Origin: a virus
IMG/VR virus record: IMGVR_UViG_3300044638_004201
Span: 9,790 to 73,789 of that record
DNA: 64,000 bases
Direction: 5' to 3' (one strand)
Part shown: piece by piece, positions 409-20,160 of the stretch
Layout of the letters: each line of letters begins with the position of its first letter
Position numbering within the stretch: the first letter of the stretch is position 1
Program-made: the position numbers and the translations under genes
Notes under the pieces: model-generated
Seen by the model: only the letters and a program-made list of their open reading frames with translations
The model's database searches: none
Told to the model about the DNA's origin: nothing

Positions 409-583
409 TATTTAACGGCAAGCCCACATCGTGAAACAGAACCCGCTGTCAATCTAAATAAGTTGTTCCGATGTGCACCAGAAGATCCGTGCATTTTTAC
501 TTTTTGCTCAGATCCGGCGTTCGGGCTTGCTGCACTACAAACAACTTCTTGATGTCCGCCCGATAAGTTGCTACTTCCTACGC

Positions 584-612
584 TTGACAAAAAGAACGGC
601 GTGCTCTATGAT
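584..612 (+). promoter_or_regulatory. SigA-like promoter, probably giving a leaderless mRNA
   Basis: TTGACA(584-589)-17 nt-TATGAT(607-612); ATG at 619. Confidence 0.75.
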
Positions 613-618
613 ACGGGT

Positions 619-768
619 ATGAAAAAGAGAAACCCACTTGACGGCTTGCTTCGCTTGCGAGGTCGCTTCGTGCTGAACCAAAAAGCACAGGTGTTTGCGG
701 ATAAGCGGTCTAAGAGAAACAAAAGTCGTGCCGAACAAAAACGGCGTGCCCTAAACGAACAGGAGTAA
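619..768 (+). CDS. Small basic hypothetical protein
   Basis: ATG 7 nt after the -10 box, in frame with track ORF 568..768. Confidence 0.55.
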   Translation: MKKRNPLDGLLRLRGRFVLNQKAQVFADKRSKRNKSRAEQKRRALNEQE

Positions 769-775
769 AAAGTAA

Positions 776-1021
776 ATGACGAAAGACACAACGGAACAAC
801 GCTGGAATCAGGGATACTACTCAGCACTCAACGGGGCGAAGATTATCAACTTCGTAGGAACAGATGAGGACGAGTTTGGTGGAACTGGCTTTCCTAAGTT
901 CTTGGCACAACTTTCTAATGGCGAAATTGTAGAACTTGTTTTATCCCAAGACCCTGAAGGTAATGGTGGTGGATTTATGTTTGGACTTCCTGATTTTACT
1001 TTACCTGAGTTTCGCAAATAA
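776..1021 (+). CDS. Hypothetical protein (SQDPEGNGGG motif)
   Basis: ORF track; AGGAG RBS upstream. Confidence 0.65.
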   Translation: MTKDTTEQRWNQGYYSALNGAKIINFVGTDEDEFGGTGFPKFLAQLSNGEIVELVLSQDPEGNGGGFMFGLPDFTLPEFRK

Positions 1022-1079
1022 ACTTGACAAAGGAATAAAAAAGAGTAGTATGTAGTTGTCTTCATAGAAAGGGGAACAA

Positions 1080-1754
1080 ATGCCAAACTGGGTATTTAAT
1101 CATCTGACCATAGAAGGTTCAGAGGAAGACATAGCAAAAGTAAAGGCTCAACTCAATAAACCATTTACAAAACAATTCAGCGAGGAAAAAGACCCAGCAG
1201 TTTATTCCAATCCTGTAATTGCGTTTTGGAACATTGTTGCGCCACCTGAGGACAAACTAGAAGAATACTTTGGTGTTCATGGATACGCTGATGGTGGAAA
1301 GCAAGGCGATACTGAATACAACTGGTATAACTTCAATAACACTAAGTGGGGAACTAAGTGGGACATTGGCGTTGTTGATGGAGAAGGTTATTCAGAAACT
1401 TCTTTAGAAGATGATGAACCAACTCATTTACGCTATCGCTTTGATACTGCGTGGTCTCCACCAACTCCAGCAATTCAAGAACTATCAAGTCAATACCCTG
1501 AACTGACAATAACTCTTTCTTACGAAGAAGAGGGAGAGTGGGGTGGCGAGATTGAGTATCTTGCTGGCGAAGAAGTGAGTGTTGATGAATACGACTCTCC
1601 AGACTCTCATAAAGATTATGTGGATAGAGATAGAGAAGATAGTTGTGTCTGCTCTCGTGAAGAAGATAAAAGCGAGTGGTATGACGATTGCCCCGGTGCT
1701 AAAGGAAAAACAATAACTCTAAAAGCAGTAAAAGAAATGGAGATAGTCAAATGA
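1080..1754 (+). CDS. YubB/Api92-like ferredoxin-fold (DUF1281-like) protein
   Basis: MPNW start, WYNFNNTKWGTKWD and FDTAWSPP signature motifs; TTGACA promoter at 1024 and GAAAGGGG RBS. Confidence 0.75.
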   Translation: MPNWVFNHLTIEGSEEDIAKVKAQLNKPFTKQFSEEKDPAVYSNPVIAFWNIVAPPEDKLEEYFGVHGYADGGKQGDTEYNWYNFNNTKWGTKWDIGVVDGEGYSETSLEDDEPTHLRYRFDTAWSPPTPAIQELSSQYPELTITLSYEEEGEWGGEIEYLAGEEVSVDEYDSPDSHKDYVDRDREDSCVCSREEDKSEWYDDCPGAKGKTITLKAVKEMEIVK

Positions 1755-1891
1755 GTAATGATGTGGCTTGGCAATCAACTCTCACAGAAGAAATGATTGC
1801 CCACCTGAGCGAACAAGAAATAAGTTTGCTTATCAACTCCCTCAATGAGTCAGTAGAAGAAATCTGCAACATCTACGAAGTCAAGGGATAA
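1751..1891 (+). CDS. Small acidic hypothetical protein (46 aa)
   Basis: ATGA overlap with upstream stop; read manually. Confidence 0.5.
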   Translation: MSNDVAWQSTLTEEMIAHLSEQEISLLINSLNESVEEICNIYEVKG

Positions 1892-1900
1892 AAAGTAAAA

Positions 1901-2101
1901 ATGGGAAAACTTATTTCAATAGAACCAACCACAGACAACTCAACTACCTACTTTGCTCTGGACGGAAATTATGGCGAAGCGCAAGGCATGGTTGTCATTG
2001 ACACGACCAAATGGTCTGAGGACGATTGGACTCAGATTGACGAAGCAGGAGACTCAGACAGGGCGCAGGTTGCTCTTGATTTGACAAACAAATACGCTTA
2101 G
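1901..2101 (+). CDS. Hypothetical protein
   Basis: ORF track; AAGGG RBS. Confidence 0.6.
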   Translation: MGKLISIEPTTDNSTTYFALDGNYGEAQGMVVIDTTKWSEDDWTQIDEAGDSDRAQVALDLTNKYA

Positions 2102-2141
2102 TGTATTGTAATTCTTACACCTACTAGAAAGGGGAAACCAA

Positions 2142-2501
2142 GTGGGAGACAGATTCGTAGTTGGATTTCAGGATAAGCCTGAAAACCCAATCCTCTATCT
2201 TTACTCACATTGGGGTGGCGAAGCACAAGAAAAAATCTTGGCTGAGGCACTCAACAAATCACAAGGTCGCTGGAACGATTCAGATTATGGAACTCGCATA
2301 GTCGTATCACAAATCATTGGCGATAGTTGGAAAGACAATCTAGGATTCGGTCTTTCTGTCAATAACTTCGCTATGCCTGACTACGACACAATTCAAGTCG
2401 TAGAGTGGCACTCTCAATCAGTATCCACACGCCAAGCCTCTGCGCCTAGCGTAGAACTAGAAAACACACCCTTTGAGCATTACTGCCTAGAAAGGGTATA
2501 A
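2142..2501 (+). CDS. Hypothetical protein (MGDR...YLYSHWGG family)
   Basis: GAAAGGGG RBS, own TTGACA promoter at 2081; YxHW motif common in phage early proteins. Confidence 0.65.
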   Translation: MGDRFVVGFQDKPENPILYLYSHWGGEAQEKILAEALNKSQGRWNDSDYGTRIVVSQIIGDSWKDNLGFGLSVNNFAMPDYDTIQVVEWHSQSVSTRQASAPSVELENTPFEHYCLERV

Positions 2502-2601
2502 GACACGCCATAAGTGGGGGGCAACCCAAACTTGACAAAAGCCCCCCACCTATGGAATACTTCGTAATAGCAAGACCAACACTAGACAAGGAGAAATACA
2601 A

Positions 2602-3057
2602 ATGTTGGACAAAGAAAAGAAGGTTCAAGGTATAGCAATCTATGCCGAGTTCCGTAAGCCCGGTGAGACTATGCAAATAGTTATCACACCTGACGCCTAC
2701 ACGACTTCAGGAAGTCTTATTCCTATGACTATGGTTCGTAGAATTGTAACTAAAATTACGCCAAAGAAACAATGGAAAATTACTTCTTTCAGAGATAACC
2801 TCAGCGAAATGGTTTCTAAAGGTGAATTGGTCGCAGATAGCGACAAGGAAACTTTCACAGAGACTCGTATGCGCTACGCAACTTCCTACTTTGACTTAGT
2901 AATAAATCAAGGTTGGGAACTAGAAAAAAAGCCAATCTTGCTAGAGACTTCTCGCCACGACGCAGATGATTTAGCAAAAGGCAAAACACCTAATAAATTA
3001 CTTTACAGGGCGCACATCTCTAGGAAAGCACTTGGCTTCCCTGAGTTGTCAGCGTAA
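2602..3057 (+). CDS. Hypothetical protein
   Basis: ORF track; AAGGAG RBS; promoter TTGACA at 2532. Confidence 0.65.
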   Translation: MLDKEKKVQGIAIYAEFRKPGETMQIVITPDAYTTSGSLIPMTMVRRIVTKITPKKQWKITSFRDNLSEMVSKGELVADSDKETFTETRMRYATSYFDLVINQGWELEKKPILLETSRHDADDLAKGKTPNKLLYRAHISRKALGFPELSA

Positions 3058-3074
3058 GAAAAGGGGAAAATAAA

Positions 3075-4130
3075 ATGGAAACTATGAAAGAGCGTTATGC
3101 TTCACTTAGTCCAAATCTCACACCTACATTGTGGGAAATGATTATTGAAGTTGCCACACAGGGAGTAAATGAAAATGCTTCACTTACACTCAACGCAAGC
3201 GTTGCCCCACAGGGTCGCTATGTTGAAAGAGCGATTGGTTCAGAGCGTGCGCCAAGAAACTCCAAACTGAAAATGGAACTTCCAAATGTTGAAGGACTTA
3301 TTGGTGCGGAAACTTACCTGCGTCCAAATGGTTCTGCCTACCACGCTCGTATGTGGGGAGAACACAAAGATGTGGAAGCCCTACGCAAAGCACGAGAAGC
3401 AACAACTCAATCTGTTCTTACAGGTGTTGGTTCTCCAATGTTCCCACTTCTTTATGGTGCGCCGGGGTGCGGAAAAACTGCGCTAGTTGAAGCGTCTTAT
3501 GGAAATGAAGTTATTACTCTTATGGGTAATGGCGACATTGAAGCCTCTGACCTAATTGGTTCTTATGTCCAAACTCCAAGTGGAAACTTTGAGTGGATTG
3601 ACGGCGGACTAATTCGGGCTATGGAAAATGGTTGGGTTTATTTCATTGACGAAATTGGTCTGATTGACCCAAAGGTTCTCGCACTTGTTTATGGTGCTAT
3701 GGACGGACGCCGAGAAATTGTTATCACTACAAACCCTGAGAGAGGTGTTGTCAAGGCACACGAAAACTTCTTCGTAGTTGCAGCGACAAATCCAAATGCT
3801 CCCGGAGTTCGTCTAAGTGAAGCGTTAGTATCTCGCTTTACTGTTCAGGCAGAAATGACAACTGATTGGGCACTTGCTCGTAAGTTAGGTGTGCCAACAC
3901 TTTTGGTAACTTCTGCTCAAAATCTTTATCGCAAACAACTTGCTAGAGAAGGTGTTTCTTGGTCTCCACAAATGCGAGAACTTCTTGCGTTTAGAGACAT
4001 AGCAATAACTTTCGGAACTTCGTTTGCGCTTTCCAACCTGATTGCTTCTGCCCCTGAAAACGATAGGGCAGTTGTCGCAGATGTTTTGTCTCGTGCCTTC
4101 GGGGAAGAGATGAAACCAGCCAAAATCTAA
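3075..4130 (+). CDS. MoxR/CbbQ/CobS-like AAA+ ATPase (AAA_5)
   Basis: Walker A GAPGCGKT, Walker B YFIDE, sensor ATNP, LSEALVSRF arginine finger. Confidence 0.9.
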   Translation: METMKERYASLSPNLTPTLWEMIIEVATQGVNENASLTLNASVAPQGRYVERAIGSERAPRNSKLKMELPNVEGLIGAETYLRPNGSAYHARMWGEHKDVEALRKAREATTQSVLTGVGSPMFPLLYGAPGCGKTALVEASYGNEVITLMGNGDIEASDLIGSYVQTPSGNFEWIDGGLIRAMENGWVYFIDEIGLIDPKVLALVYGAMDGRREIVITTNPERGVVKAHENFFVVAATNPNAPGVRLSEALVSRFTVQAEMTTDWALARKLGVPTLLVTSAQNLYRKQLAREGVSWSPQMRELLAFRDIAITFGTSFALSNLIASAPENDRAVVADVLSRAFGEEMKPAKI

Positions 4131-4213
4131 GTATCCCTGTCCTTAGGTTTTGGTTCGGGGAGTTGGGGATTGAGCGTGGTTCATTGGGTGTCCTTCGCTC
4201 TCCCCAACACCCC
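4118..4213 (+). ncRNA. Candidate two-hairpin RNA with C/U-rich loops
   Basis: 14-bp stem AGCCAAAATCTAAG/CTTAGGTTTTGGTT with loop TATCCCTGTC; second stem GGGGAGTTGGGGA-TT-GAGCG/CGCTC-TCCCCAAC-ACCCC with loop ending GTGTCCTT. Confidence 0.5.
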
Positions 4214-4294
4214 ACCTTTAGATTTGACAAGGAAAAGCAAAAAGTGTAGTATCTAATTGTTAGGTCGGAAGCCTGACAGAAAAGGGGAAATAAA

Positions 4295-6073
4295 ATGGCT
4301 CATCTAAAAATGGGTGAAACCAAAGCACAGGCTACTCCTGTTGAGTGGCTCAAAGTTGGTAGAGACATTGGCTACATGGCTAACAAGTGGTCTCTACGAG
4401 ATGATTTAGTTGCGTATGTTGGTCCGGGTGCTGGTGGTCCGGCACCTGCGTGCTACTCACCTACACAAGCAGAAGTTGAAGTAAATGTTGATGTTGCGTT
4501 TGCTAAAGGTATTACACCTGAGGAAATTGGCGACATAACACTTCGCAAAACACAATACGAGTTTCCTAAGGCGACAGGTGCGATTATGCACGAAGCCTTC
4601 CACGCTCGCTTCTCACAATGGTCTATGCCTAAGGCGTATGAGGAATTAGAGAAGGACGAATACAACGCACTTATTCTTTTAGAGGAAAGTCGCATTGAGT
4701 ATCAAGGTGTCAAGTCTCTATCTATCGCTCGTCCTTTCCTTCGTGCTTGCGCTATGGAAATTGTTATTGGCGATACAAAAGAAGGTATGGAAAACGAAAC
4801 ACAAACACAATCGCTAACTAATTTAGTTGGTCTTGTCTTTGCTCGCATTGACGCAGGTATCTTAGATGAACACGAAGTCTTTGCGATTACAGAAATGATT
4901 ACAGACCAACTTGGTGTAGATGTTGTTGAGCAACTACGAACAATCGCTCGTTCAGCACAAATGCACGACAACCACAAAGACGCCACAGAACTTTATCCAC
5001 TAGCAAAAGAGTGGGCACGAATTGTTCGTGAAACTGCTAAAGAGCGTGGAGATGAACAAAAGCCTGAAGGTAACAAAGGTATTCCTTCTGAAATCATGGA
5101 AGCAATCATGGAAGCGTTGTCTGAGGCTTCAGATGAAGTAATGGCAAACAACTTCTCCGACTTGGGCGACCAAGAGCAGGGTGAGGACATGAGAGAGGAA
5201 GTCAAGGCAAAAGCCTCTGACGCACAAGAGCAAAACGAAAATCGTGAAATTGCTAATCAAGTGTTCTCTAAATCTTCAGGGCCGGGGCAATCAAAAACCA
5301 ATAGCAAGTTGATTGAACAACGCCAACCAACAAGTGAAGAACTATCTGCCTCTGTTCGTATTGGACAATGGTTAGAGAAAGCAAAGTATCGTGAGCGAGA
5401 TGAACTACAAATCGCAAGCGTGCTTCCACCCGGACGCCTTCGCACTAGAGCAATCGTCCAAAATGCAGCCTTGAAATCTCGTGGAGTAAATCAGCGAGTA
5501 GAGCCTTTCCGTAGAACTGTTCGCAAACACACAGACGACCCAACACTCAATGTTGGAATTATGGTCGACATTTCAGGTTCAATGGGAAGTGCTATGAACC
5601 CTATGGCTACAACTGCGTGGGTAATGGCTAACGCAGTAAATCGTATTCAAGGAAACTGCGCTATGGTCTATTACGGAAATGATGTGTTCCCAACTCTAAA
5701 GGTTGGACAAAAACTTTCTGAAGTAAATGTTTATTCTGCTTCGGACGGAACTGAGAAGTTTAGTAAAGCGTTCTCAGCATTGGAAGGCGCACTTAACTTA
5801 CTTCACGGAAATGGCGCAAAGTTGTTGGTAATTGTTTCGGACGGAGAATACACTTCAGATGAAACAAGAAATGCCAAAGAGATTGTTGCCAAATGTAAAG
5901 AGGCAGGTGTCGCAATTTTATGGCTACCTTTTGATAATGGCAGAAGTGCGAAAGCGATTGGTGGAGATTATGCCGAAGTTGTTTTGGACATAAGCCGACC
6001 TGCGGAAGCCTCTGAAATTATTGGTCGTTCAGCAGAAAAAGTAATGACGAGAATTGGGCAACGAGTGGCGTAA
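4295..6073 (+). CDS. CobT-like VWA-domain protein with N-terminal HEXXH metallopeptidase-like domain
   Basis: HEAFH + downstream LEESRIE; MIDAS DISGS, ...GT..., VSDGE; adjacent to MoxR ATPase. Confidence 0.85.
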   Translation: MAHLKMGETKAQATPVEWLKVGRDIGYMANKWSLRDDLVAYVGPGAGGPAPACYSPTQAEVEVNVDVAFAKGITPEEIGDITLRKTQYEFPKATGAIMHEAFHARFSQWSMPKAYEELEKDEYNALILLEESRIEYQGVKSLSIARPFLRACAMEIVIGDTKEGMENETQTQSLTNLVGLVFARIDAGILDEHEVFAITEMITDQLGVDVVEQLRTIARSAQMHDNHKDATELYPLAKEWARIVRETAKERGDEQKPEGNKGIPSEIMEAIMEALSEASDEVMANNFSDLGDQEQGEDMREEVKAKASDAQEQNENREIANQVFSKSSGPGQSKTNSKLIEQRQPTSEELSASVRIGQWLEKAKYRERDELQIASVLPPGRLRTRAIVQNAALKSRGVNQRVEPFRRTVRKHTDDPTLNVGIMVDISGSMGSAMNPMATTAWVMANAVNRIQGNCAMVYYGNDVFPTLKVGQKLSEVNVYSASDGTEKFSKAFSALEGALNLLHGNGAKLLVIVSDGEYTSDETRNAKEIVAKCKEAGVAILWLPFDNGRSAKAIGGDYAEVVLDISRPAEASEIIGRSAEKVMTRIGQRVA

Positions 6074-6094
6074 GTCGTTCTTGCTCAAAAAGAA

Positions 6095-6194
6095 CTCTCG
6101 GTTCGGGTGCGTCCTTCCAACGCATTTCCCACCAAGAACCGAACCGAGAGCCTATGTAGGTGAAGCCCCACCCCCTTTTCGGGGCTTCACTTAC
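6095..6194 (+). ncRNA. Candidate two-hairpin RNA with anti-SD-like loops
   Basis: CTCTCGGTTCGG/CCGAACCGAGAG stem enclosing CCTTCCA and TTCCCACC; GTAGGTGAAGCCCC/GGGGCTTCACTTAC stem with loop ACCCCCTTTTC. Confidence 0.55.
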
Positions 6195-6225
6195 TCAACC
6201 AAAAAGTAAAAAGGGGAGAGACAAA

Positions 6226-6639
6226 ATGACATACGAAATTAAATACAACGCTATTGACCCTGACCCAGCGCAACAAGACGCAATCTTTTATACGGGCATG
6301 GGTTTAATTGCTACTGTGATTTGGGAAGGTTTCCATGTTGATGTTTATTGCGACGGAGAAACGAGAGTAAATCTTTTAGACGCACCACAAGGGCAAGTTG
6401 TTTCTAGTCTCTACAATCCTTCAGATTTTATTGAAGCAGGGCTGGATACAGATGACGCCTTGCGAGTGGCTAACGACCAAGAACTTCTTGATTGGGTAAA
6501 TAACTCTTGGTTTGATTTGTATTGCGAAGGCGAACACCTTGATGCGGTATCTCACGAACTCAATGAAGCCCTAGCCATAGCGACTAACTATGTGAAGCAA
6601 GAGTGGCAAAACTCTGAAGAACTTGACAAAGCGTTCTAA
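6226..6639 (+). CDS. Hypothetical protein
   Basis: Start moved to ATG 6226 behind AAGGGGAG RBS. Confidence 0.65.
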   Translation: MTYEIKYNAIDPDPAQQDAIFYTGMGLIATVIWEGFHVDVYCDGETRVNLLDAPQGQVVSSLYNPSDFIEAGLDTDDALRVANDQELLDWVNNSWFDLYCEGEHLDAVSHELNEALAIATNYVKQEWQNSEELDKAF

Positions 6640-6682
6640 ATATGATTTACTAAGCAAAGACTAGGAAAGGGGAAAAAGTAAA

Positions 6683-7216
6683 ATGCACACTTGTCATTTA
6701 CTGCTCATTGAAGCAGAGGACGCAGAAGAAGCAAAGGCAAAGGTTCAATCAGCGATTGAGCCTGAGGAAGGAAACTATCCGACTTGGTCTGATTGGCACG
6801 GCGGATTTGATGAAGGACTTGCTGGACGCTGGTCAGGTTTGTTTGAGGGCTGGGAAGAAAACAGAGATGTTCTTCAATACACCGAGAACAAGGTTCTTGC
6901 TGACGACATCATCAAACAATTTGTTGGTTATCGTTTAGAAGAAATGAAAAGCCTTCTAAGTCAGATTGAAACTGCTGGGGACTTTGATTTCAATACTTAT
7001 GTAAAAGCCTACGACCCATACAAGCAAGAGTTCAATGACGCAGGTATGAACCTTTGGCGGGCACAGAGCCTTGTAAAGATACTCAATAACGATTGGTGTC
7101 CTTACACATACATTTACGACATACAAGACTATACGGCGAACCTAGAGTATTTCAAGGCACGGCTGGAAACCGCACCTGAAAAACAATTCATTGTTCCTGT
7201 TGATTTTCACTACTAA
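6683..7216 (+). CDS. Hypothetical protein (WSDW..GRWSG ... VDFHY family)
   Basis: ORF track; GAAAGGGG RBS; promoter TTGACA 6623. Confidence 0.7.
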   Translation: MHTCHLLLIEAEDAEEAKAKVQSAIEPEEGNYPTWSDWHGGFDEGLAGRWSGLFEGWEENRDVLQYTENKVLADDIIKQFVGYRLEEMKSLLSQIETAGDFDFNTYVKAYDPYKQEFNDAGMNLWRAQSLVKILNNDWCPYTYIYDIQDYTANLEYFKARLETAPEKQFIVPVDFHY

Positions 7217-7232
7217 TAGAAACGGATAAAAA

Positions 7233-7373: not shown

Positions 7374-7393
7374 CGGATAAGGAAAAAGTAAAA

Positions 7394-7642
7394 ATGAAAG
7401 TAAAAAATCTGATTGAACAATTACAGGCATACACACCTGATACTGAACTGATTGTTGCTTACTGGGATAAAGAAACAGTAGAAGGCTACGCCTCTGGCTG
7501 GGGCGAACAAGATAGGTTCGTGCTTACGGACGACCAATGGCTTGATGTTGTTGATAAGTATGATGACGGAGAGTGGCATTGGCAATCCTCTGCTGCACAA
7601 GATTTTACTGACATGGCTAGAGATGTTGTTGCTAGTGAGTAA
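7394..7642 (+). CDS. Hypothetical protein (MKVKNLIEQL family)
   Basis: ORF track; AAGGA RBS. Confidence 0.65.
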   Translation: MKVKNLIEQLQAYTPDTELIVAYWDKETVEGYASGWGEQDRFVLTDDQWLDVVDKYDDGEWHWQSSAAQDFTDMARDVVASE

Positions 7643-7799: not shown

Positions 7800-7856
7800 T
7801 CTCTGCAAAGGCAAAAAGTAAAAACTCACCAAAATCGCTAGTCACGAAAGGGAACT

Positions 7857-8012
7857 ATGGACAACTTGGAGATGTATGCAAATGCCATGACTTGGTGGAA
7901 CTCAAAGACCCCTGAGCAGAAACTAAAGATTGTGGGAGTAGAAACTTTGGACAAATGGGTTGAAGGGATAGTCCGAAAGGAGTATCTCGCCCCTGCCGAA
8001 AGTGTGGTCTAA
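7857..8012 (+). CDS. Small hypothetical protein (51 aa)
   Basis: GAAAGGGA RBS; read manually. Confidence 0.5.
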   Translation: MDNLEMYANAMTWWNSKTPEQKLKIVGVETLDKWVEGIVRKEYLAPAESVV

Positions 8013-8018: not shown

Positions 8019-8133
8019 TAAGATTTATGCCCTTTTGATTTGACAAGCGTAAGCCTACTCGTGTAAAGTCTGTTTTGTTAGGTCGGATACCTAATGAAGG
8101 ACAAAATGACAAACGAAAGAGGGAATTGGGCTT

Positions 8134-8520
8134 ATGCCTAGAACCGAAATCGCACAAGAGGTAGTAGTCAAAACTACTATCGCAGTAGCAACAAAGGAAG
8201 TAGCACTTGACGCTACAAACGCTGGCGCACTTATCGCAGAACTCAATGCGACAAAAGACGCAATCAAAACTGCTCAGGACAAGGCGAAAGCCCTTCAGGC
8301 AGACATTTATCCTCTACTTGGATACACACTCGTAAATGGTGAGTGGGTTGGCGAAGCAGAGGTTGGCACAATCGCTGGTAATGTTGTTGTGAAGGTCGCA
8401 ACAATCAACGCAACAAAGTTTGAGAAGGATAGACTTCTCAACGACAAGCCTGAACTCGCACCTGTGTTCGAGGCATACACAATCCCAGCCCCTTACAAGG
8501 CTATGAAAACAGGGAAGTAA
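8134..8520 (+). CDS. Hypothetical protein with coiled coil
   Basis: ORF track; own promoter and terminator. Confidence 0.65.
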   Translation: MPRTEIAQEVVVKTTIAVATKEVALDATNAGALIAELNATKDAIKTAQDKAKALQADIYPLLGYTLVNGEWVGEAEVGTIAGNVVVKVATINATKFEKDRLLNDKPELAPVFEAYTIPAPYKAMKTGK

Positions 8521-8530
8521 TTTCCAAAGG

Positions 8531-8562: not shown

Positions 8563-8665
8563 CTATAAAGATGTTTGGCAAAAAGTAAAAATGGAAGTTA
8601 ATCAAATCTTCGAGGGAAACTACGAACAACTTGCGTAGAAAGGGAAAACCTGATAGGGTGCATTT

Positions 8666-10376: not shown

Positions 10377-10602
10377 CATACTTCTCAGTAGAACTGTGAT
10401 GTTTGTTGGCGATTACTTTACGCTAATGACCACTATTGTCTTAGACGAAAAACTACGCAACGAAAATGAAAGCGACAATGACTTTGCGGTTCGTGTTGCC
10501 TCTATTTTTATGAACGAGTATTACGGATTTGATGTTGAGGCAGTATCTAATAGCATTGGTGTTGTTGATGAAAATGGAGATGAGGTAGAGGAAGATGTCT
10601 AA
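10369..10602 (+). CDS. Hypothetical protein
   Basis: GAGG RBS before ATG 10369. Confidence 0.55.
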   Translation: MDSILLSRTVMFVGDYFTLMTTIVLDEKLRNENESDNDFAVRVASIFMNEYYGFDVEAVSNSIGVVDENGDEVEEDV

Positions 10603-10939
10603 CCTTGACTTTCTAGTATCTATTACTGAAGCCATTGAAACTGGCAAAGTAGATAATCAACTGGACACGATTGCTAAAGCAATTCAAGAGCGAAAGAACT
10701 TGTTGCGAACAGGAGTATCCATAGACGACTTCTCCATTGGGGATAGGGTTGTTATCAACGAAAGATGTGGCACAAAGTATTTGCGTGGTGAAGTAGCGAC
10801 CATTGTTGGTATTCGCAGAACCAAGATAACAATTCAGTTTGATAACCCTTCGGGCAGATTTGTTCGCAAGAACTCAGACGGAACTATCTACTCCTCAGAT
10901 GTGGTTGTGCCGATTGAGATTGTTGATAGGAAAAAGTAA
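10595..10939 (+). CDS. Hypothetical protein with SH3/KOW-like C-terminus
   Basis: FSIGDRVVI...GEVATIVGI pattern. Confidence 0.6.
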   Translation: MSNLDFLVSITEAIETGKVDNQLDTIAKAIQERKNLLRTGVSIDDFSIGDRVVINERCGTKYLRGEVATIVGIRRTKITIQFDNPSGRFVRKNSDGTIYSSDVVVPIEIVDRKK

Positions 10940-10968
10940 AAAACCTAAAAGTATGTTAAAGTGGTAAC

Positions 10969-11404: not shown

Positions 11405-11441
11405 GCAAAAAGTAAAAACTTACGAGGGTTGAGGGTGCGCT

Positions 11442-12008
11442 GTGACTACGATTGCTGCTGTTCAGGGTGAAAACTGGGCTGTCGTTGGTTATGACTCACG
11501 AGTAACTGAAGAAAACGAAAAGATTTACACACTTCCAAAAGATAATGGGAAGTTATTTAAGAACGGGGCATACCTTATTGGGGTAGCCGGCGACATGAGG
11601 GCTATCAACTTATTATCATTTGTGTTCAAGCCGCCTGCAATAACACCAACAACTTATGGAGTTAAACTCGACAAGTTTATGACTGCCATTTTTATACCTG
11701 AACTGAAGAAATGCTTTGAGGACAACTCATACTCAAAAGATGGCGACCAAGATAGCCAAGTGATGGTTCTTATAAATGGAACTGTCTATGAGATTGGCAA
11801 CGACTATTCGTGGGCACGGGACGAGAGTGGGGTTTATGCCATTGGTTCTGGAAGTGCTTACGCTCTGGGTGCTTTGCTGGGGACTCTAGAAACAAGAAAG
11901 AGGACTCTGGCAACTGCCAAGACGCTAATCAGACAAGCATTGACTATCTCTGCCAAACTTGACCCTAACACAAGTGCGCCTATCTATATAAATGTGCAGC
12001 ATTTTTAA
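11442..12008 (+). CDS. HslV/proteasome-beta-like Ntn-hydrolase (threonine protease)
   Basis: M-TTIAA start giving N-terminal Thr, DSRVT, GVAGD, AIGSGSAYALGAL. Confidence 0.85.
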   Translation: MTTIAAVQGENWAVVGYDSRVTEENEKIYTLPKDNGKLFKNGAYLIGVAGDMRAINLLSFVFKPPAITPTTYGVKLDKFMTAIFIPELKKCFEDNSYSKDGDQDSQVMVLINGTVYEIGNDYSWARDESGVYAIGSGSAYALGALLGTLETRKRTLATAKTLIRQALTISAKLDPNTSAPIYINVQHF

Positions 12009-12235
12009 TACCTAGTTAAGGCAAACTACAAACAACTTCTGTGCTGTGAGGACCGGCGTGCCGTAGATTTTTACTTTTTGCTGATGCACTGCTGCCGCTG
12101 CTGGTGACCTTCTGGAATTGTTGGTAGTCGTTAATACCTGGTTGAACAACCTATGAAACGATTTGCGTTAGCCCTTGTAAAAATAATTTGCGACACTACT
12201 TGACTTGCCTATCCTAAAATGCTATCCTTCAGTTA

Positions 12236-13302: not shown

Positions 13303-13314
13303 CAAACAATTAGA

Positions 13315-13342
13315 AATGCCCCGCCTAGTGCGGGGTATTTTT
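13315..13342 (+). terminator. Intrinsic terminator
   Basis: ATGCCCCGC-CTAGT-GCGGGGTAT + T-tract. Confidence 0.8.
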
Positions 13343-13486
13343 ATTTAATTTGCAGTGGGACGCTGTGGCAAAAAGTAAAAACCTGCAATAGCGCCCAGTG
13401 CATTTGCACACTACAAACAATTTGAGAAGTCTAAAATCCCAGAAACCCTGACCCAAATGATGTGAAGACAAAACGGACATTTTGCC

Positions 13487-14205: not shown

Positions 14206-14371
14206 AGCCCAACAGATTTTAGAGAAGCCCCCGTTGATGCGGGGGTTTTTTCTTTGGCAACTATAAACAACTTGGTCAAATCGAGGGCCCGGTGGTGCAT
14301 TAGCAAAAAGTAAAAACTCTCCTTCAGATCCGCTGCAAGTAAAAACAACTTGGGTTGTTTGCTGAAGGGAC

Positions 14372-14401
14372 TTGACAAATGTCAGGAAGGTTTGATAGTA
14401 T
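14372..14401 (+). promoter_or_regulatory. Promoter with GTCAGGAAGG operator in spacer (repeated at 14667 and 15277)
   Basis: TTGACAAATGTCAGGAAGGT-TGATA duplicated at 14372 and 14667. Confidence 0.65.
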
Positions 14402-14660: not shown

Positions 14661-14719
14661 GCCGATTTGACAAATGTCAGGAAGGTATGATAAACTCTCC
14701 ATAGAAAGGGGAAATACAA

Positions 14720-15253
14720 ATGAACACTTCTCCACAAGATGAAGCACTAGAACTACTAGAAACAAAAATAGCACCACGCTCTTATACGATTGACTATCCA
14801 AAAGAATTGTGGTCTGAGTTATTGCCCGGCTTATGGCAGGGTGGAACTGATGATGACGACATTTATGACCAACTAGCAACGCCAGCAATTACAAAAAAGA
14901 ACTTTGATTTTGTGATTACAGCCTACGCTTGGGCTAATCCTGTTGATTGGTTTGTCAAGGAAATCCGTTTCGGATTTTATGACAGCGACATGGCAGACTT
15001 TGACCCAAATGATTTACAAGGAATTGTTCGTATGGCTCACGCAGAGTGGAAGCGAGGACAGCGTGTCCTTATTCGTTGCCAAGCAGGTATGAACCGAAGT
15101 GGTCTAATTATGGCTCTAGTCCTTATTCGTGAGGGCTACACGCCACAAGAAGCGATTGACTTGATACGGGCTAAGAGAAGCAAGCACGCCTTGTTCAATG
15201 GTCGCTTTGAGAAGTGGCTGAGTGAAGTTGATGTTTCGGCGTGGAGAAACTAA
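14720..15253 (+). CDS. Dual-specificity / protein-tyrosine phosphatase
   Basis: P-loop VLIRCQAGMNRSG (CX5R), SELLPGLWQG, AIDLIRAKR. Confidence 0.9.
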   Translation: MNTSPQDEALELLETKIAPRSYTIDYPKELWSELLPGLWQGGTDDDDIYDQLATPAITKKNFDFVITAYAWANPVDWFVKEIRFGFYDSDMADFDPNDLQGIVRMAHAEWKRGQRVLIRCQAGMNRSGLIMALVLIREGYTPQEAIDLIRAKRSKHALFNGRFEKWLSEVDVSAWRN

Positions 15254-15350
15254 GACACGCCGAAAGTCAGGAAGGTTTGACAAAAGGTCAGGAAGGCTGT
15301 AATCTTAGGGTATTGACTAGGAAAGTCAATAGAAAAGGGAGAAAGACAAA

Positions 15351-15506
15351 ATGAAAACAGAAGCAAAGTTTATTAGACGCAGAATTGCCGTTGGACTTAT
15401 TTTGCTTGCTTTGTTCGCTTGGGCTCTTGACGCTACTACACCTGAGATGTGTAAAGTGCCGACAGAACAAATGAATCAATTTTGTTTAGACCTGTTGTAT
15501 CCATAA
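15351..15506 (+). CDS. Small membrane/secreted protein (51 aa)
   Basis: RRR + hydrophobic stretch; RBS AAGGGAG; read manually. Confidence 0.5.
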   Translation: MKTEAKFIRRRIAVGLILLALFAWALDATTPEMCKVPTEQMNQFCLDLLYP

Positions 15507-15527
15507 TAACTAAAGGGGGTAGTAATA

Positions 15528-15779
15528 ATGTCAGGTTGGAGAACTAAAAAAGCAAATGCTTTAGCAAAAAGAGAAGCCTCTTTTATCAAAAGCAGAGAAA
15601 GACTTAGCACACCTCGTGCGGAGTTTTTACTAAAGTTTGCTTTTATGAGTGATGAGCAGTTTGAGAAATGGTCTGAACTAAAGACAAGTGCCGAAGCAAG
15701 AGCCTTTATGGAAGCACTACCAATGCCTCAAATAAAAACAAATGAAGTGTTTATCAAACTAGACAAAGAAGAAAGATAG
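15528..15779 (+). CDS. Hypothetical protein
   Basis: AAAGGGGG RBS. Confidence 0.55.
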   Translation: MSGWRTKKANALAKREASFIKSRERLSTPRAEFLLKFAFMSDEQFEKWSELKTSAEARAFMEALPMPQIKTNEVFIKLDKEER

Positions 15780-15792
15780 GGAAAAAGTAAAA

Positions 15793-16284
15793 ATGAAGAA
15801 ATGTATAAATGCTACTTGCGAAAGCACGGAGTTAGTTTATTCAGGCGTAGATGCGTTCTTGCTTGGTGGTATTGAAACAGAGAAGTGGTGCTACACCTGC
15901 GCCAATGCGATTGCTTTATCTAACAGGAAGGAAGAATCAAATGTTGCTTGATAATGGAACAATGTTCGCAATAATTATTGCGCTTGCGGGTTCATGCTTT
16001 GTTATGGTTGTTGGTATCAGAGCGCAAGGTAAGTTGATACGGGAGAACAACAGACTTCGTAAAGAACTAACTGAACTTCACTACGAGAAGGTGAAGGGAG
16101 GAATCTAATGGAAGAAACTAATGTAATGCTTGACCCAATGGATTGCGGTCTTGCCTGTCAGTTTGAGTGGATAGAAGTATCATCAAACTTCTTCAGCGTT
16201 GCTGTCTATACACCTGCGTTGATAGTTGGTGTGCTTTCTTATTTCATCTACAAAGCGATAAAAAAGAAGAAACGAAAGGCGTAA
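15793..16284 (+). CDS. Three small overlapping ORFs (15793-15951 Cys-rich; 15941-16108 and 16108-16284 single-TM)
   Basis: Read manually; coupled start/stop codons. Confidence 0.45.
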
Positions 16285-16291
16285 TTCAGAA

Positions 16292-16495
16292 GTGGCAAAA
16301 AGTAAAAAGATAGAGATTGATGCTGCAAAGTTATACAACTCTGGTCTTGCCATAGATGATGTGGCTGAAGAACTTGGTGTCTGTTATAGGACAGCGAGGA
16401 AAGCGATTCGTAGTAGTGGAGTTGTTTTGAGAGACCCTTCAGCCCGTCTCAGAGGTAGAACTAGCCCTAAAAGAAAGAAGGCAGGAAATGAATAA
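16292..16495 (+). CDS. Helix-turn-helix DNA-binding protein
   Basis: LYNSGLAIDDVAEELGVCYRTARKAI HTH pattern. Confidence 0.75.
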   Translation: MAKSKKIEIDAAKLYNSGLAIDDVAEELGVCYRTARKAIRSSGVVLRDPSARLRGRTSPKRKKAGNE

Positions 16496-16643
16496 TCTCA
16501 ATGTAGTTTGGTCTGCGGTAGTTGCCAGCGTGGCATCTGCGCTCGCTGTTGTAATGGCTATCTGGGGAGACTCAGATGTGTCCTTAGCCCTCGGCGCTGT
16601 GGCGATTACTTCGGCTGTTCTGTCCATAAGGGAGAAACCTTAG
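16488..16643 (+). CDS. Small two-TM membrane protein
   Basis: Read manually; hydrophobic. Confidence 0.5.
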   Translation: MNNLNVVWSAVVASVASALAVVMAIWGDSDVSLALGAVAITSAVLSIREKP

Positions 16644-16681
16644 GACTTGATTTCCTGTCAATAGTATGACATAATGAAGTT

Positions 16682-16737
16682 GGACTAGAGGCTCTCTGAC
16701 ACAAACCTTCCCCCGTCAGAGGGTCTCTATTCTTTTG
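16682..16737 (+). ncRNA. Candidate single-hairpin sRNA with C-rich loop
   Basis: Promoter TTGATT 16647-17-CATAAT 16670; 15-bp stem TAGAGGCTCTCTGAC/GTCAGAGGGTCTCTA, loop ACAAACCTTCCCCC; T-rich tail. Confidence 0.6.
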
Positions 16738-16796
16738 GCGTGTCGCTTGACAAAGAACTTGGACTATTGTATTGTTGTCTATGAAAGGGGAAGAAA

Positions 16797-16913
16797 ATGA
16801 CAAAAACCAAGAAAAAACAAATCATTTACATAGCCTGTTGGAAGTGCGGTAGCCAGTTTTCCCTGTATGAAAACGACTACAACCACGGGGCTTGTTGCGG
16901 AAAGTGCCTGTAA
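16797..16913 (+). CDS. Small Zn-finger protein (38 aa)
   Basis: CWKC...CGKC; GAAAGGGG RBS; promoter 16747. Confidence 0.5.
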   Translation: MTKTKKKQIIYIACWKCGSQFSLYENDYNHGACCGKCL

Positions 16914-17097
16914 AAGGCTACCTTCCTGACTTTCCTGTGATAGAGTATTACCTATGAACGACATACGACCTAACGACAAACTTAGGAAAGGTAAGTAATA
17001 CCTGTCTCCCCAATGAGGGTGGCTCGGTTGGCTTAGTCAGCAACCCAACTGCGGTTTATACAACGCAGAGTCCATGTCCCCAAACAAAGGAAAATCA

Positions 17098-17730
17098 ATG
17101 CAGAAAACTAAGAGCAGAGTTGTCGAACAAATCTTGAGCGTATTGCTTTCGGTTGGAGTTATTTCGACTTTCTCTACCTATGTTCAAGCGTCCAACGCAG
17201 ACGAACAAAAAGTAAAAACTGTTGTCGAAGTGCAGCAGCAACAGCAAGAAAAGAAAACCTACGAACAACTTATCGAGGCTGAAATCGTCGCCCATAAGGA
17301 AAAAATCAAGGCTCTACAACTCCAGAGGTTTGCTGACCAGCGAACCACCTTCACGGACGAAGAACTCGCTCAACTGCTCTATGCCGTTGGGTTTGAGGGC
17401 AAAGCCCTAAAGGTCGCTTGGGCTGTTGTGAAGAAGGAGTCTAATGGTCGCCCTATTGCCTTCAATGGCAATACAAGAACAGGCGACTCTTCATACGGAA
17501 TCTTCCAGATTAATATGATTGGCGGACTAGGAGTAGACCGCCGAGAAAAGTTTGACCTCAAATCAAATGCGGAACTATTCAACCCAGTAGTCAATGCTGA
17601 GATTGCTTATCACATGAGTAATGGTGGCGAAAAATGGGAGGCTTGGAAAGTTGGTAGCGGGTATAATGGTGTAGACCAAGAACGCTATGAATCTTGGCTC
17701 AAGAAGTTTCCCGAAGGAGTAACCCCTTGA
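17098..17730 (+). CDS. Secreted lytic transglycosylase / lysozyme-like protein
   Basis: N-terminal signal/TM, KKESNG catalytic Glu, SYGIFQIN, LFNPVVNA. Confidence 0.85.
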   Translation: MQKTKSRVVEQILSVLLSVGVISTFSTYVQASNADEQKVKTVVEVQQQQQEKKTYEQLIEAEIVAHKEKIKALQLQRFADQRTTFTDEELAQLLYAVGFEGKALKVAWAVVKKESNGRPIAFNGNTRTGDSSYGIFQINMIGGLGVDRREKFDLKSNAELFNPVVNAEIAYHMSNGGEKWEAWKVGSGYNGVDQERYESWLKKFPEGVTP

Positions 17731-18206
17731 TAGAGAACGCCAAAGAACCTGAGGTCTCAGAGCCAACACCCGTGCTTGAGAGTGCGGAAGTTGTCCCTAC
17801 ATTTGCCCCACCAGCGCAACCCGAACCCGTGTGGACAGAGCCAGAAACTCTAGAAGCAGAAGTTGTTGAAGAAGTTGTTGCTGTTGCTGCACCTGTCGAA
17901 GAGGCAAAAAGTAAAAATGATGCACCAGCCCCGTCAAAACTTGCTGCATCTAAAAAAGTTGTTTCGTTGTCGAACCTTGTTTTCGAGTCGAAATCCAGAA
18001 ATTCTGCATCAGTTGGTTTGGTGCAATTCCGTCTTGTCGAACTCGGCTTTCTCGATGCGGGTAGTGACAAGTTTGGTTGGCTAAGTGCAGGGACTATGAA
18101 GTCTCTCGCTCAGTTTGCTAAGACTTCGGTAGAAAAAGTCAATGCTCAGGACGAGAAACTAATCTCTTGTTTGTTCGAAGGGACTTCAGTAGAAGTCACT
18201 AACTAA
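17727..18206 (+). CDS. Protein with acidic Pro/Ala-rich N-terminus and peptidoglycan-binding-like C-terminus
   Basis: VGLVQFRLVELGF...DKFGWLSAGTMKSL resembles PG_binding_1; GAAGGAG RBS before TTG. Confidence 0.5.
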   Translation: MIENAKEPEVSEPTPVLESAEVVPTFAPPAQPEPVWTEPETLEAEVVEEVVAVAAPVEEAKSKNDAPAPSKLAASKKVVSLSNLVFESKSRNSASVGLVQFRLVELGFLDAGSDKFGWLSAGTMKSLAQFAKTSVEKVNAQDEKLISCLFEGTSVEVTN

Positions 18207-18320
18207 GTATTAACAAAATCAACGCCTTGCTCGTCACTTAAACTTGACTTGCAGGGCGTTGTTTTTTACTTTTTGCGTCCTTGTGTGGAGTTTGGAAGGA
18301 CGGCATAAGGCGTCAAAAAA

Positions 18321-18352
18321 GAAACCCCCTAGCAAAAACTAGGGGGCTTTCT
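18321..18352. terminator. Bidirectional terminator between convergent units
   Basis: GAAACCCCCTAG-CAAAAA-CTAGGGGGCTTTC flanked by A and T tracts. Confidence 0.75.
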
Positions 18353-18370
18353 TTATTCCAGAACCAGAAC

Positions 18371-19036
18371 TTAGACTGTGCTTCTGTTTTTGTGTAGAAC
18401 GGGCTTGTAGGAAGAAGATTTTCCTAGTGTAGTTGTGCGGTATCCATACCGAACCAAGCGGAAAGCAAGTGCCGAAGTAGTTACTCCTAATAACTTTGCC
18501 AAGCGATAGAGAGTAACTTTTTGTTCGTTGTGTGCTTGATTGAGTAGGTAGGTGTATTCCTCAGCCTCAGCGCGAAAGCGAGGGCTGTTTGCTCTTACCT
18601 GCTGTGCGTAGGGTTGAAGTTCCTTCAGCCTTGCCAGTAGTTCAGGTGTAGGCATTACATAACGAGATTGCCCTACCTTTGGTGCGTGCTTTGGAACGGG
18701 TGGAACAAATAGCGTTGGCGGAACGCCTGTGCTAGTGTGAGAGTTTAGAATTACTCTAATCATCTGCGGAGATAATTTAGACGCTCTCGCTACGGACGCT
18801 TGTGTCCAGCCAGCACCTACTAACGCCACTACATAATCGTTTCTCATTTTTTTATCTAGTGGGCTTGTCAGCATAGAAAAAGCCACAACCACATTTTCAG
18901 GTAGTTGTAGTTTTGCTATTTTGTTCTGCCCTGCCCTGCGATAGAAAGTAGGTCTTTCTGTTCTAATTGCGTAGCGTGCCCCGTGAGCCTTTTCTAGTTG
19001 GCCGGGGTTAGTGCGGAAGTTGATTGCGGTTGTCAT
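18371..19036 (-). CDS. Tandem-HTH DNA-binding protein (paralog of 21326..21826)
   Basis: AGWTQASVARAS and VTLYRLAKLLGVTTSALAFRL HTH patterns. Confidence 0.7.
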   Translation of the reverse strand: MTTAINFRTNPGQLEKAHGARYAIRTERPTFYRRAGQNKIAKLQLPENVVVAFSMLTSPLDKKMRNDYVVALVGAGWTQASVARASKLSPQMIRVILNSHTSTGVPPTLFVPPVPKHAPKVGQSRYVMPTPELLARLKELQPYAQQVRANSPRFRAEAEEYTYLLNQAHNEQKVTLYRLAKLLGVTTSALAFRLVRYGYRTTTLGKSSSYKPVLHKNRSTV

Positions 19037-19053
19037 TTTGTCCTTTGTTTGAG

Positions 19054-19389
19054 TTAGTCAATACGGAGAAACTCACGAAGTTGTTTCGCGGTTTCATCAT
19101 TGAGTCCTAGCGTTTCGCCTTCCTCACCTGTGCCACCTGTGAAGATTACATCTCCACAAATAAAGTCAGTAAGTCCGAAATACTTTTCCCATAAGAAAGT
19201 TGCCATAGGGTTGATTGGCAACCCATAAAGTTTTCCTTCTTCATTTACCCAGATTGTCAAGTCTGCGGTGAAGTCTATCGCTTGAACAAGTCCGCCTACG
19301 GCAGATTGAAGTTGCTCTAGTTGAGAACCTTCATCTGCTAGTTGGACTTCCTCTGCTTGTCCTTCAGCATTTAGTTTGATAGCAAGCAT
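19054..19389 (-). CDS. DUF3846-like protein
   Basis: LEQLQSAVGG, VNEEGKL.GLPIN, ICGDVIFTG. Confidence 0.75.
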   Translation of the reverse strand: MLAIKLNAEGQAEEVQLADEGSQLEQLQSAVGGLVQAIDFTADLTIWVNEEGKLYGLPINPMATFLWEKYFGLTDFICGDVIFTGGTGEEGETLGLNDETAKQLREFLRID

Positions 19390-19450
19390 TTTATTTCCTT
19401 TCTGTTTGATAAGTGTAAGGCTAGACCATAGGAATAGCCCTTGTCAAGTT

Positions 19451-19624
19451 TTATTTATAAATTACTTTGTGCGTTGCTTTTATTGCTTTTACTACGACCC
19501 AAGAGAATAATTTACCAATTATTTCTGCTTGCTCGTCATAACTAACAATAGGTGCTTTACGCTTTGGCTTGCGGTGTAGGCGTTTGTAAGTTCCTACTAT
19601 TGCGCTATCAGGTAGTCCTCGCAT
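19451..19624 (-). CDS. Small hypothetical protein (57 aa)
   Basis: Read manually; own promoter and RBS. Confidence 0.5.
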   Translation of the reverse strand: MRGLPDSAIVGTYKRLHRKPKRKAPIVSYDEQAEIIGKLFSWVVVKAIKATHKVIYK

Positions 19625-19670
19625 TTTCTTTCCTTTCCCTTGTCTTAGTGATAATACTATGGCATAGCCT

Positions 19671-20160
19671 TACGCTTGTCAAGTCTTTAGGGTGTGTTTT
19701 AGGACACATTTAGTCTAGGGTTTAGAACGCTGTGTGCGGATAGTCTGCGAAAGTTGTTTGTAGAAGTAGAACCGGTTAGCCAGATTTTTACTTTTTGGCT
19801 ACCTTCGCCAGAAAAAAACCCCCTTTCGGGGGCTTTTAGTTTTTAGACTAGGGTTAGCGAGGCTTCGCTTTCCCTTTGTCTTGATACCTGTAAGCGGTAT
19901 TCAAGTCTGCTCTCTGGGCGATTTATGGCTTTTTGGCAACCTGTCCAGTCTGTGTGCGCTAGTGCCATAGTCTCTGCGCCTTTTTGTTTATGGACTAGTG
20001 CGGTGTAATCCTCGTTGCTCATAATCTCTACCGAGCAGGAATAGCAGACCTTTCCAAGTCCTACTACTTTCTTTTTGTTTTTCATCTTTCCCCCTTGTTT
20101 GTGCTTATAAGATAAGCCTATGCTAGTGTCTTACGCTTGTCAAGTCTTTAGGGTGTGTTT
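19671..20160 (-). repeat. 29-bp direct repeat (19671-19699 and 20132-20160) containing -35 box and half CRP-like box
   Basis: TACGCTTGTCAAGTCTTTAGGGTGTGTTT twice. Confidence 0.8.
19843..20085 (-). CDS. Zn-binding hypothetical protein
   Basis: CYSC...H...C; AAGGGGG RBS; terminator 19812-19838. Confidence 0.6.
   Translation of the reverse strand: MKNKKKVVGLGKVCYSCSVEIMSNEDYTALVHKQKGAETMALAHTDWTGCQKAINRPESRLEYRLQVSRQRESEASLTLV

Follow-up and report, generated by a model that had tools for sequence, protein, structure and literature searches.

What reads a short A-rich word that is written again and again, letter for letter, into one block of a phage genome? The question is raised by a 64,000-nucleotide stretch of viral DNA (hereafter the window), which covers bases 9790-73789 of the 73,789-bp IMG/VR contig IMGVR_UViG_3300044638_004201 (CheckV completeness of the contig 55%) and in which the asymmetric 12-mer AAAAAGTAAAAA, the A word, is concentrated in the first 20 kb, here called the early block. 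The answer that we favor, tentatively and at a probability of roughly 45%, is that the full element, AG(C/T)AAAAAGTAAAAA, is an oriented double-strand DNA operator for a phage regulator, akin to the known stoperators and start-associated sequences (SAS), which would gate early gene cassettes at their boundaries.

The word is far too frequent to be a product of base composition. The window holds 18 exact copies against 0.05 expected and a maximum of one in dinucleotide-preserving shuffles; the whole contig holds 20, of which 19 fall between contig positions 6.9 and 29.6 kb and two precede the start of the window. In the first 20 kb, 17 copies stand against 0.02-0.06 expected under Markov models of orders 1-4 trained on those 20 kb alone, and no other 12-mer with at least ten A's is present more than twice. 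Hence, local A-richness, which the sequence-only reading that first drew attention to the word had named among the findings that would refute it, is ruled out as the cause by a Markov count of the kind that it had proposed. All 18 of its coordinates and strands (the 17 early copies and a lone one at 62824) are confirmed. A logo of 260 unique instances, drawn from the contig and 15 related loci (16 loci), shows a sharp 15-mer (AGYAAAAAGTAAAAA in its 15-letter form) with random flanks on both sides. The 5' GGC that had been seen on many copies is present in 7 of the 18 in the window, but AGC is found on most others and the consensus over the 260 instances is A-G-(C/T). In one sub-lineage the word reads AGTAAAAAGTAAAAA, which amounts to two GTAAAAA heptads, and once to four.

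About 93% of the copies are co-oriented with the genes, the orientation flipping with gene direction in divergent blocks, and more than 80% lie outside long open reading frames (ORFs). In about 35% of all copies the upstream stop codon is overlapped by the word or lies at most 10 nt before its start. The internal TAA serves as this stop codon in 11% of copies, and since these alone use it, translational coupling via the internal TAA was rejected. Copies within coding sequence, among them those at 17207 and 17906 that had been assigned there from the letters alone, always take stop-free frames and read K-S-K or K-V-K.

One of the two contexts of the word is the gene start. In 57 of the 233 unique copies (24%) the A-run ends in the ATG of an ORF with zero spacing; 89% of these ATGs open at least 35 codons, versus 33% of random ATGs, and they head some 10-12 unrelated gene families. 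A Shine-Dalgarno (SD)-like purine block (GAAAGG, AGGAG or GAGAGG) lies directly 5' of the core in 72% of the ATG-abutting copies, as against 20% of the others, and the A-run is trimmed to two or three A's precisely where the SD abuts the core. The spacing from GG to ATG is 9-16 nt (mode 12) with the word, versus 5-8 nt (mode 7) in promoter-proximal genes. The core of the ATG-abutting copies therefore sits in the SD-AUG spacer of a message transcribed from further upstream. The sequence-only claim that the word is not just a ribosome-binding-site spacer is accordingly weakened, as about 25% of copies lie exactly in the SD-to-ATG spacer; a further 15% or so lie just 5' of an SD, and about half are away from any start codon. 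The two near copies reported at 767 and 6673 are real and are shortened forms pressed against an ATG. Leaderless messages from a phage-specific promoter were downgraded given that the ATG-abutting copies keep an SD upstream with a spacer of about 12 nt, and pairing of AAAAAG with the 16S 3' tail as an SD was rejected by reasoning, the aligned spacing being about 1 nt.

The other context is an island formed with a partner, motif B (AAGTTGTTTGTAG), which occurs 35 times at up to one mismatch versus 10.8 expected, two thirds of the occurrences being in the early block. About a third of the words (35-39%) have B at -45 and at +40 to +55, in either orientation, forming islands of about 100 bp in which spacers of about 30 nt between word and B are GC-rich and unconserved. 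These islands are non-coding, as indels in them show; the one at 17906, in a coding region, is kept in two other lineages (L012 and L015) despite differing surrounding protein sequence. Islands typically come after a terminator and before a host-type promoter. In the 90 nt before the word, 15% of copies have a terminator-like hairpin with a T-run, versus 2.4% of random positions, and the preferred gap from T-run to word, seen in 17 unique copies, is 11-17 nt. The early block has about 25 canonical TTGACA-N16-18-TA(G)NNT promoters, each with a leader of 20-35 nt and the SD GAAAGGGGAA. The 180 nt downstream of such a promoter are almost always free of words; among the island copies, 43% have a promoter of this kind 67-160 nt further downstream, and the distribution of words among the early genes complements that of the sigma-A promoters. 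A phasing check found no TANNNT or -35-like hexamer at a fixed offset from the word, and the idea that the word is itself a host-type promoter was rejected, the canonical promoters being separate and no -35/TANNNT being phased with it. No promoter able to transcribe the reversed island at 12068 in sense was found. The promoters between 584 and 20822 (e.g., 1024, 4224, 8040, 14372 and 19682 on the minus strand) are near the consensus (A/C)TTGACAA-N17-TAGTAT, and in several of their leaders a small hairpin (e.g., gttaggtcggaagcctgac) separates the -10 from the SD.

The copies of the window, with the two shortened forms, are as follows:

494-505, minus strand: A word, reversed against its neighboring genes, at the center of a B'-A-B island, with AAGTTGTTTGTAGT at 538-547 and AACAACTT about 27 nt downstream.
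767-778, plus strand: shortened word AAAAAGTAAATG, filling the stop-to-ATG gap before the 81-aa gene 776-1021, with AGGAGT upstream.
1890-1901, plus strand: A word filling a stop-to-start gap and abutting the ATG of gene 1901-2101.
6201-6212, plus strand: A word 11 nt past the hairpin behind the CobT-like gene, followed by the SD GGGGAGAG and the ATG at 6226.
6673-6684, plus strand: shortened word AAAAAGTAAAATG between the SD GGAAAGGGG and the ATG at 6683.
7383-7394, plus strand: A word between TAAGG and the ATG at 7394.
7813-7824, plus strand: A word directly past the upstream stop, with 33 nt to the SD and the ATG at 7857.
8580-8591, plus strand: A word about 15 nt past a terminator T-run, abutting an ATG, with the B-like CGAACAACTT 32 nt downstream.
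10931-10942, plus strand: A word supplying, with its internal TAA, the stop codon of gene 10595-10939.
11407-11418, plus strand: A word 2 nt past a stop codon, followed by an SD and the GTG at 11442 of the HslV-like gene.
12068-12079, minus strand: reversed A word in the island behind the HslV-like gene, with B' at 12029-12038, kept in at least nine relatives.
13370-13381, plus strand: A word in the island after the terminator 13311-13343, with B at 13414-13423.
14305-14316, plus strand: A word flanked by B on either side (14264-14273 and 14342-14351), the B-A-B island being preceded by a terminator and followed by the sigma-A promoter at 14372.
15782-15793, plus strand: A word filling the gap from a TAG stop to the ATG at 15793.
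16297-16308, plus strand: A word read as K-S-K-K, codons 3-6 of the 67-aa helix-turn-helix (HTH) protein (16292-16495).
17207-17218, plus strand: A word in the N-terminal part of the SLT-domain ORF (Q-K-V-K-T), with a B-like site at 17262-17271.
17906-17917, plus strand: A word with B' at about -45 and +47, the whole island lying within ORF 17694-18206 (A-K-S-K-N).
18263-18274, minus strand: A word past the bidirectional terminator 18322-18349, where convergent gene blocks meet.
19785-19796, minus strand: A word 15 nt past a terminator T-run, with B at 19751-19760 and then the sigma-A promoter at 19682 downstream.
62824-62835, plus strand: lone exact 12-mer between the RuvC-like and helicase genes, probably no member of the family.

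The last of these does lie before the helicase ORF, as first described; we treat it as an outlier because it has no AGY flank and because the word at that junction is not conserved in four relatives (G001, G002, G003 and G005). The reverse complement of the word contains TACTTT, which has the form TANNNT. A TTGACT at 18244, 17 nt upstream of the TACTTT of such a reversed word, is aimed at the bidirectional terminator 18322-18349 and could yield an RNA of about 70 nt.

A search with the CobT-like protein gave 33 related viral loci. The exact word is retained in all 17 whose CobT identity is 67% or more, with 10-17 copies per about 20 kb, so the conservation in related contigs that had been proposed as a check is now found. 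In three near-complete relatives (92-100% complete, 123-133 kb), with 15-30 copies each, a single block of 20-30 kb in each genome takes in 64 of the 65 exact copies, which again point the same way as the genes. The 16 more distant loci have at most one exact copy each, and each has an over-represented word of its own: GGAGGTAAAAAA; (TA)4-N6-GGGGTAAAAA; an extended -10 promoter, CCTGATATAATAGTAC; or, on the opposite strand, GTGAAAAAATGAATACA, GGAAAAAACGAATACA or CAGAAAAAATAAATACA. Immediately downstream of the CobT-like gene, every lineage has its own word in the same slot (L023, L025, L030, L033, L036). Such lineage-by-lineage replacement is the pattern expected of a site that is read by a co-evolving phage factor, and its concerted occurrence in the same slots argues for such a reader.

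The replacements themselves take several forms. Three more distant lineages, L030 (12083-21578), L033 (12039-21303) and L036 (12021-21228), have 16-17-nt words of their own, 9-23 nt past terminators, which are T-rich on the gene strand (the A-rich strand being antisense). In L030 a fixed distance of 27-29 nt separates the end of the word from the downstream -35 of a TTGACT-N17-TANNNT promoter, the -10 of which ends about 6 nt before the ATG, implying leaderless genes. The word of the GGGGTAAAAA lineage is set 6-7 nt away from the (TA)4 core (L025, 17870-17910 and similar), and two words sometimes face each other over one TATATATA to form a perfect palindrome of about 36 bp. Actinomycetia phage DSL-LC01, a 129-kb metagenome-assembled lake phage whose capsid protein is 72.5% identical to that of the window, does not have the exact word. 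Its locus (L009, OQ999401.1, 22600-43400) has about 33 palindrome-wrapped extended -10 promoters, GATTCTAAAGATGTTATAATAGAATC, enclosed by the inverted repeat GATTCTA...TAGAATC, the early ones each being wrapped, and after each promoter an SAS-like ribosome-binding block, ACGACGAAAGGACAA, stands 3-6 nt before the ATG. The annotation of the DSL-LC01 record makes no mention of this palindrome-wrapped promoter repeat.

Pfam and PHROG scans of about 45 early proteins for a reader of the word returned only weak HTH signals, in the products of 16292 (67 aa) and 18371 on the minus strand (221 aa). A presence/absence screen for proteins confined to genomes with the word turned up only small ORFs that have no recognizable fold. 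A leading, if weak, candidate is the 67-aa HTH protein (16292-16495), on whose first codons (2-6) the copy at 16297 indeed lies, as had been noticed at the outset; in the GGAGGTAAAAAA lineage the lineage's own word stands directly before the ATG of the same HTH gene. Autoregulation of this gene via the word at its start in the two lineages is hence plausible. In all three lineages with a word ending in GTAAAAA the putative recognition helix is YRTARKAI, and in two lineages without this half-word it is YGKARKLI or YGKARQLI; we treat the match as no more than a lead, since such a pattern would be expected from phylogeny too. The 93% complete genome of one further lineage yielded no homologue. 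Three basic proteins (18371-19036 on the minus strand, 21326-21826 and 16292-16495 on the plus strand) have in common an HTH-like segment G-x-x-x-x-x-(I/L)A-x-x-x-G-V-x-Y-R, and the 221-aa and 166-aa ones seemingly have two such segments each.

A phage-encoded polymerase or sigma factor was likewise sought. A Sigma70_r2 profile search over five relatives gave no match while its positive control was detected, and a search for T7-type polymerase (PF00940) gave none either, a weak negative as its control stayed silent. In the 100% complete relative (G001), the ORFs of at least 200 aa have a DSL-LC01 homologue or were scanned as fiber or glycine-rich proteins, bar a few that went unscanned, one of 567 aa and the others of no more than 340 aa. 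Structural, replication and fiber proteins account for the large ORFs of this relative; small divergent factors may have escaped these searches. The 3136-aa virion protein was considered as a hidden polymerase and set aside, a DEDD exonuclease domain and a weak kinase signal being all that was found in it. Its ORF (25534-34944) lies between the portal gene and a MuF/protease-like ORF of 1579 aa, with the exonuclease at residues 1307-1508 and the weak signal, PI3/4-kinase-like, at the C-terminus. The length of this giant ORF varies widely, from 2088 aa in G001 to 3289 aa in DSL-LC01.

As both contexts carry the identical word, a single reader is the economical assumption. A DNA-level site is favored because motif B stands in either orientation at a fixed distance, because some islands occupy untranscribed gaps, because a reversed island is conserved and because another is embedded in coding sequence. 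If the word is a DNA operator, host RNA polymerase would initiate early in infection at the approximately 25 TTGACA-N17-TAGTAT promoters and read through junctions and leaky terminators, until the accumulated factor occupies the word in one orientation and hinders the polymerase, such that the promoter-distal genes of each cassette would be turned down. At words between SD and ATG the bound factor would also hinder ribosome access; at words 11-17 bp past a T-run it might stall the polymerase with its active center on the U-tract and so tighten termination—a terminator-coupled stalling that we infer from the size of the polymerase footprint. At about one third of the sites, AAGTTGTTTGTAG at about ±45 bp would help build complexes of about 100 bp, possibly nucleation sites. 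The element may also act at both the DNA and the mRNA level. The most inclusive version, in which one small protein tightens leaky terminators, occludes SD-AUG spacers in a coupled shut-off and nucleates the 100-bp complexes, while lineages rewrite the 5' half of the word along with its reader, strikes us as decidedly unlikely.

Several observations tell against a DNA operator. The exact placement in the SD-ATG spacer in 10-12 unrelated families, where the spacer is about 12 nt long with the word instead of about 7, fits an mRNA operator better. No sense copy of the word overlaps any of the approximately 25 TTGACA-N17-TANNNT promoters, which would be the best position for a repressor. No integrase, repressor or immunity module was seen, the DSL-LC01 annotation having only a small resolvase-type recombinase; the phage looks lytic, and the precedent of the stoperators, which silence a prophage, is thus not directly transferable. 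The agreement between HTH helix type and GTAAAAA half-word goes no further than phylogeny would also predict. What stands of the proposal that the word is a binding site for a phage protein in the early region is its asymmetry, sharp edges, restriction to the early block, orientation with the genes and conservation in the clade; the factor itself was not found among the early proteins scanned.

The alternative closest to this is an operator in the mRNA, whereby the word is read in the transcript by a RegA-like RNA-binding protein, or acts as a start-associated sequence, and controls ribosome entry. It has a literature precedent in the SAS of Cluster K and EF phages (PMC3203893, PMC7302621, PMC12699233), and it accounts well for the gene starts: 57 of 233 copies end in the ATG of a real ORF, 72% of these with an SD directly 5', the core fills the SD-AUG spacer with the A-run trimmed to two or three A's at the SD, about 15% more copies lie just 5' of an SD, the sense orientation of 93% would follow automatically, and coding copies keep to the stop-free frames K-S-K or K-V-K. 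Against this, about half of the copies are near no start codon, little RNA is expected over the island copies between terminators and promoters, the conserved reversed copies would be antisense, and a partner that occurs in both orientations at a fixed distance is impossible for an RNA element; altogether we hold this explanation to be rather doubtful. We think it improbable that the word is a phage-specific (middle) promoter, i.e., a self-contained start signal used by the host polymerase with a phage factor to make leaderless or short-leader mRNAs. A compact element, co-oriented with the genes and complementary to the sigma-A promoters, would suit such a role: the order terminator, about 15 nt, word, SD, ATG leaves a -35/-10 promoter no room, two orthologous word slots hold a sigma-A-type promoter in DSL-LC01, and the variable 5' half with a constant AT-rich 3' half recalls the logic of T7-type promoters. 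However, the SD lies upstream of the word in 72% of the ATG-abutting copies, so that their messages start further upstream; the sense strand of the word has no -10-like TANNNT and none lies at a fixed offset; some copies face a convergent junction or the 3' end of a gene, or occupy the last 300 nt of an operon; and the 100% complete relative offers no sigma factor or polymerase candidate, the PF00940 part of that negative being weak for its silent control.

Two further explanations dispense with gene control. The word could be a homology patch at PeSL-like (promoter early stem-loop) cassette junctions, serving the gain, loss and swap of small genes with no dedicated reader. Parts of the region are covered by four lake metatranscriptome runs, as Logan assembled contigs of related strains at low depth, which cannot reveal 5' ends. 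Here whole-gene indels are bounded by the word (skipping 1755-1904), one relative's contig diverges upstream of 15790 yet retains the word at this mosaic junction, and the gene content between words varies strongly among relatives. However, 12-15 nt is very short for homologous recombination, and perfect conservation at 67% protein identity, strict orientation, the geometry of B and lineage-wide replacement point to selection by a reader; hence, we regard this as highly improbable. To a genome mark unrelated to expression—a programmed nick, a modification, or a replication or entry signal of the first-entering DNA—we give only a very slight chance. From its composition, the early block does look like first-entering DNA that avoids restriction-type sites: positions 1-21300 versus 21301-64000 contain 0 versus 81 ACGT, 1 versus 81 CCWGG, 3 versus 32 GATC and 5 versus 45 GGCC, and all three GATC sites of the early block lie within 60 nt of an A word (in the islands at 494 and 14305), two of them flanking that at 494. 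However, the orientation of the word follows gene direction in divergent blocks and not one strand of the genome, which also tells against the analogy to the programmed nicks of T5 that the sequence-only reading had drawn, and its tight coupling to stop and start codons is unexpected for nicks or origins.

Comparison with known systems places the word between two of them. The stoperators of Cluster A mycobacteriophages occur genome-wide in temperate phages with an immunity repressor and an integrase, one true operator overlapping the early lytic promoter, and binding of the repressor blocks the elongating polymerase in a polar manner; those bound by gp71 of L5 were reportedly described by Brown and colleagues in 1997. 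The word resembles them as an asymmetric, lineage-specific 13-15-bp word in 20-30 copies, set in one orientation in short intergenic gaps that touch stops and starts. It differs in being confined to the early quarter of the genome rather than being genome-wide, in having no overlap with an early promoter and no repressor/integrase module in sight, and in having a partner motif at ±45 bp and a quarter of its copies in the SD-ATG spacer. The suggested likeness to the L5 stoperators is supported by the asymmetry, mostly intergenic placement and orientation with the genes; it is weakened by the lack of overlap with a host-type promoter and by the absence of a visible lysogeny module. With the T4 RegA operators the word shares A/U-richness, placement over the initiation regions of many early mRNAs and, as it seems, a lytic phage with early shut-off; RegA sites are degenerate, whereas the word is exact and is also found in untranscribed or antisense places. 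The PeSLs of T4-type phages are promoter-plus-terminator units of 50-70 bp. Like them, the word is a repeated unit that is interspersed among the small genes of a hyperplastic early region and is found where genes are gained and lost; unlike them, it is 15 nt long and is not a host-type promoter.

The Cluster A stoperators (the L5 gp71 sites) are described in PMC3203893, and the SAS and extended SAS (ESAS) of Cluster K and EF phages, to which the literature has yet to assign a verified function, in PMC3203893, PMC7302621 and PMC12699233. Like SAS and ESAS, the word is an actinophage asymmetric repeat of the 13-bp class, in one orientation, in the non-structural region and beside ATG starts. 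Every second SAS site or so comes with a further, more variable element in the form of an inverted repeat immediately upstream, whereas B accompanies 35-39% of the words and flanks them on both sides at about 45 bp. SAS contain the SD core, lie 3-8 nt before the start and are virtually all at starts. The word itself has no SD but stands after it, with a spacing of zero to the ATG; an ATG is abutted in 24% of cases, with about 15% preceding an SD and the rest elsewhere. Thus, the word fails defining features of stoperators and of SAS and works partly like both. The exact word in two contexts, the SD-ATG spacer and the terminator-promoter islands with their phased partner, makes for a clean study case, in which the rewritten words of sister lineages render the reader discoverable by covariation and the mechanism testable. 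If true, the terminator-coupled roadblock would be a novel timing mechanism for early phage genes, in hosts that are abundant, uncultured, low-GC lake actinobacteria. Private repeated words are, to our knowledge, widespread in the early regions of actinophages, the stoperator being the only one that we know to have a demonstrated mechanism.

As to the phage itself, the presence of portal, capsid, tail-tube, tape-measure and DNA polymerase genes indicates a siphovirus. The word-bearing block is made up of small genes and also encodes MoxR-type ATPase, CobT-like and HslV-like proteins, an SLT lysozyme, a phosphatase and a few weak HTH proteins. A near-identity search of the phage collection gave no match to the contig, an Rfam scan of 1-22 kb no known RNA family, and a tRNA search no tRNA. 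The gene at 8134-8520 (128 aa) has the deepest contigs (within 8042-8526) in two lake RNA libraries, with depths of 37 and 22 versus 2-10 across other parts of the early block, depth being a poor measure of expression.

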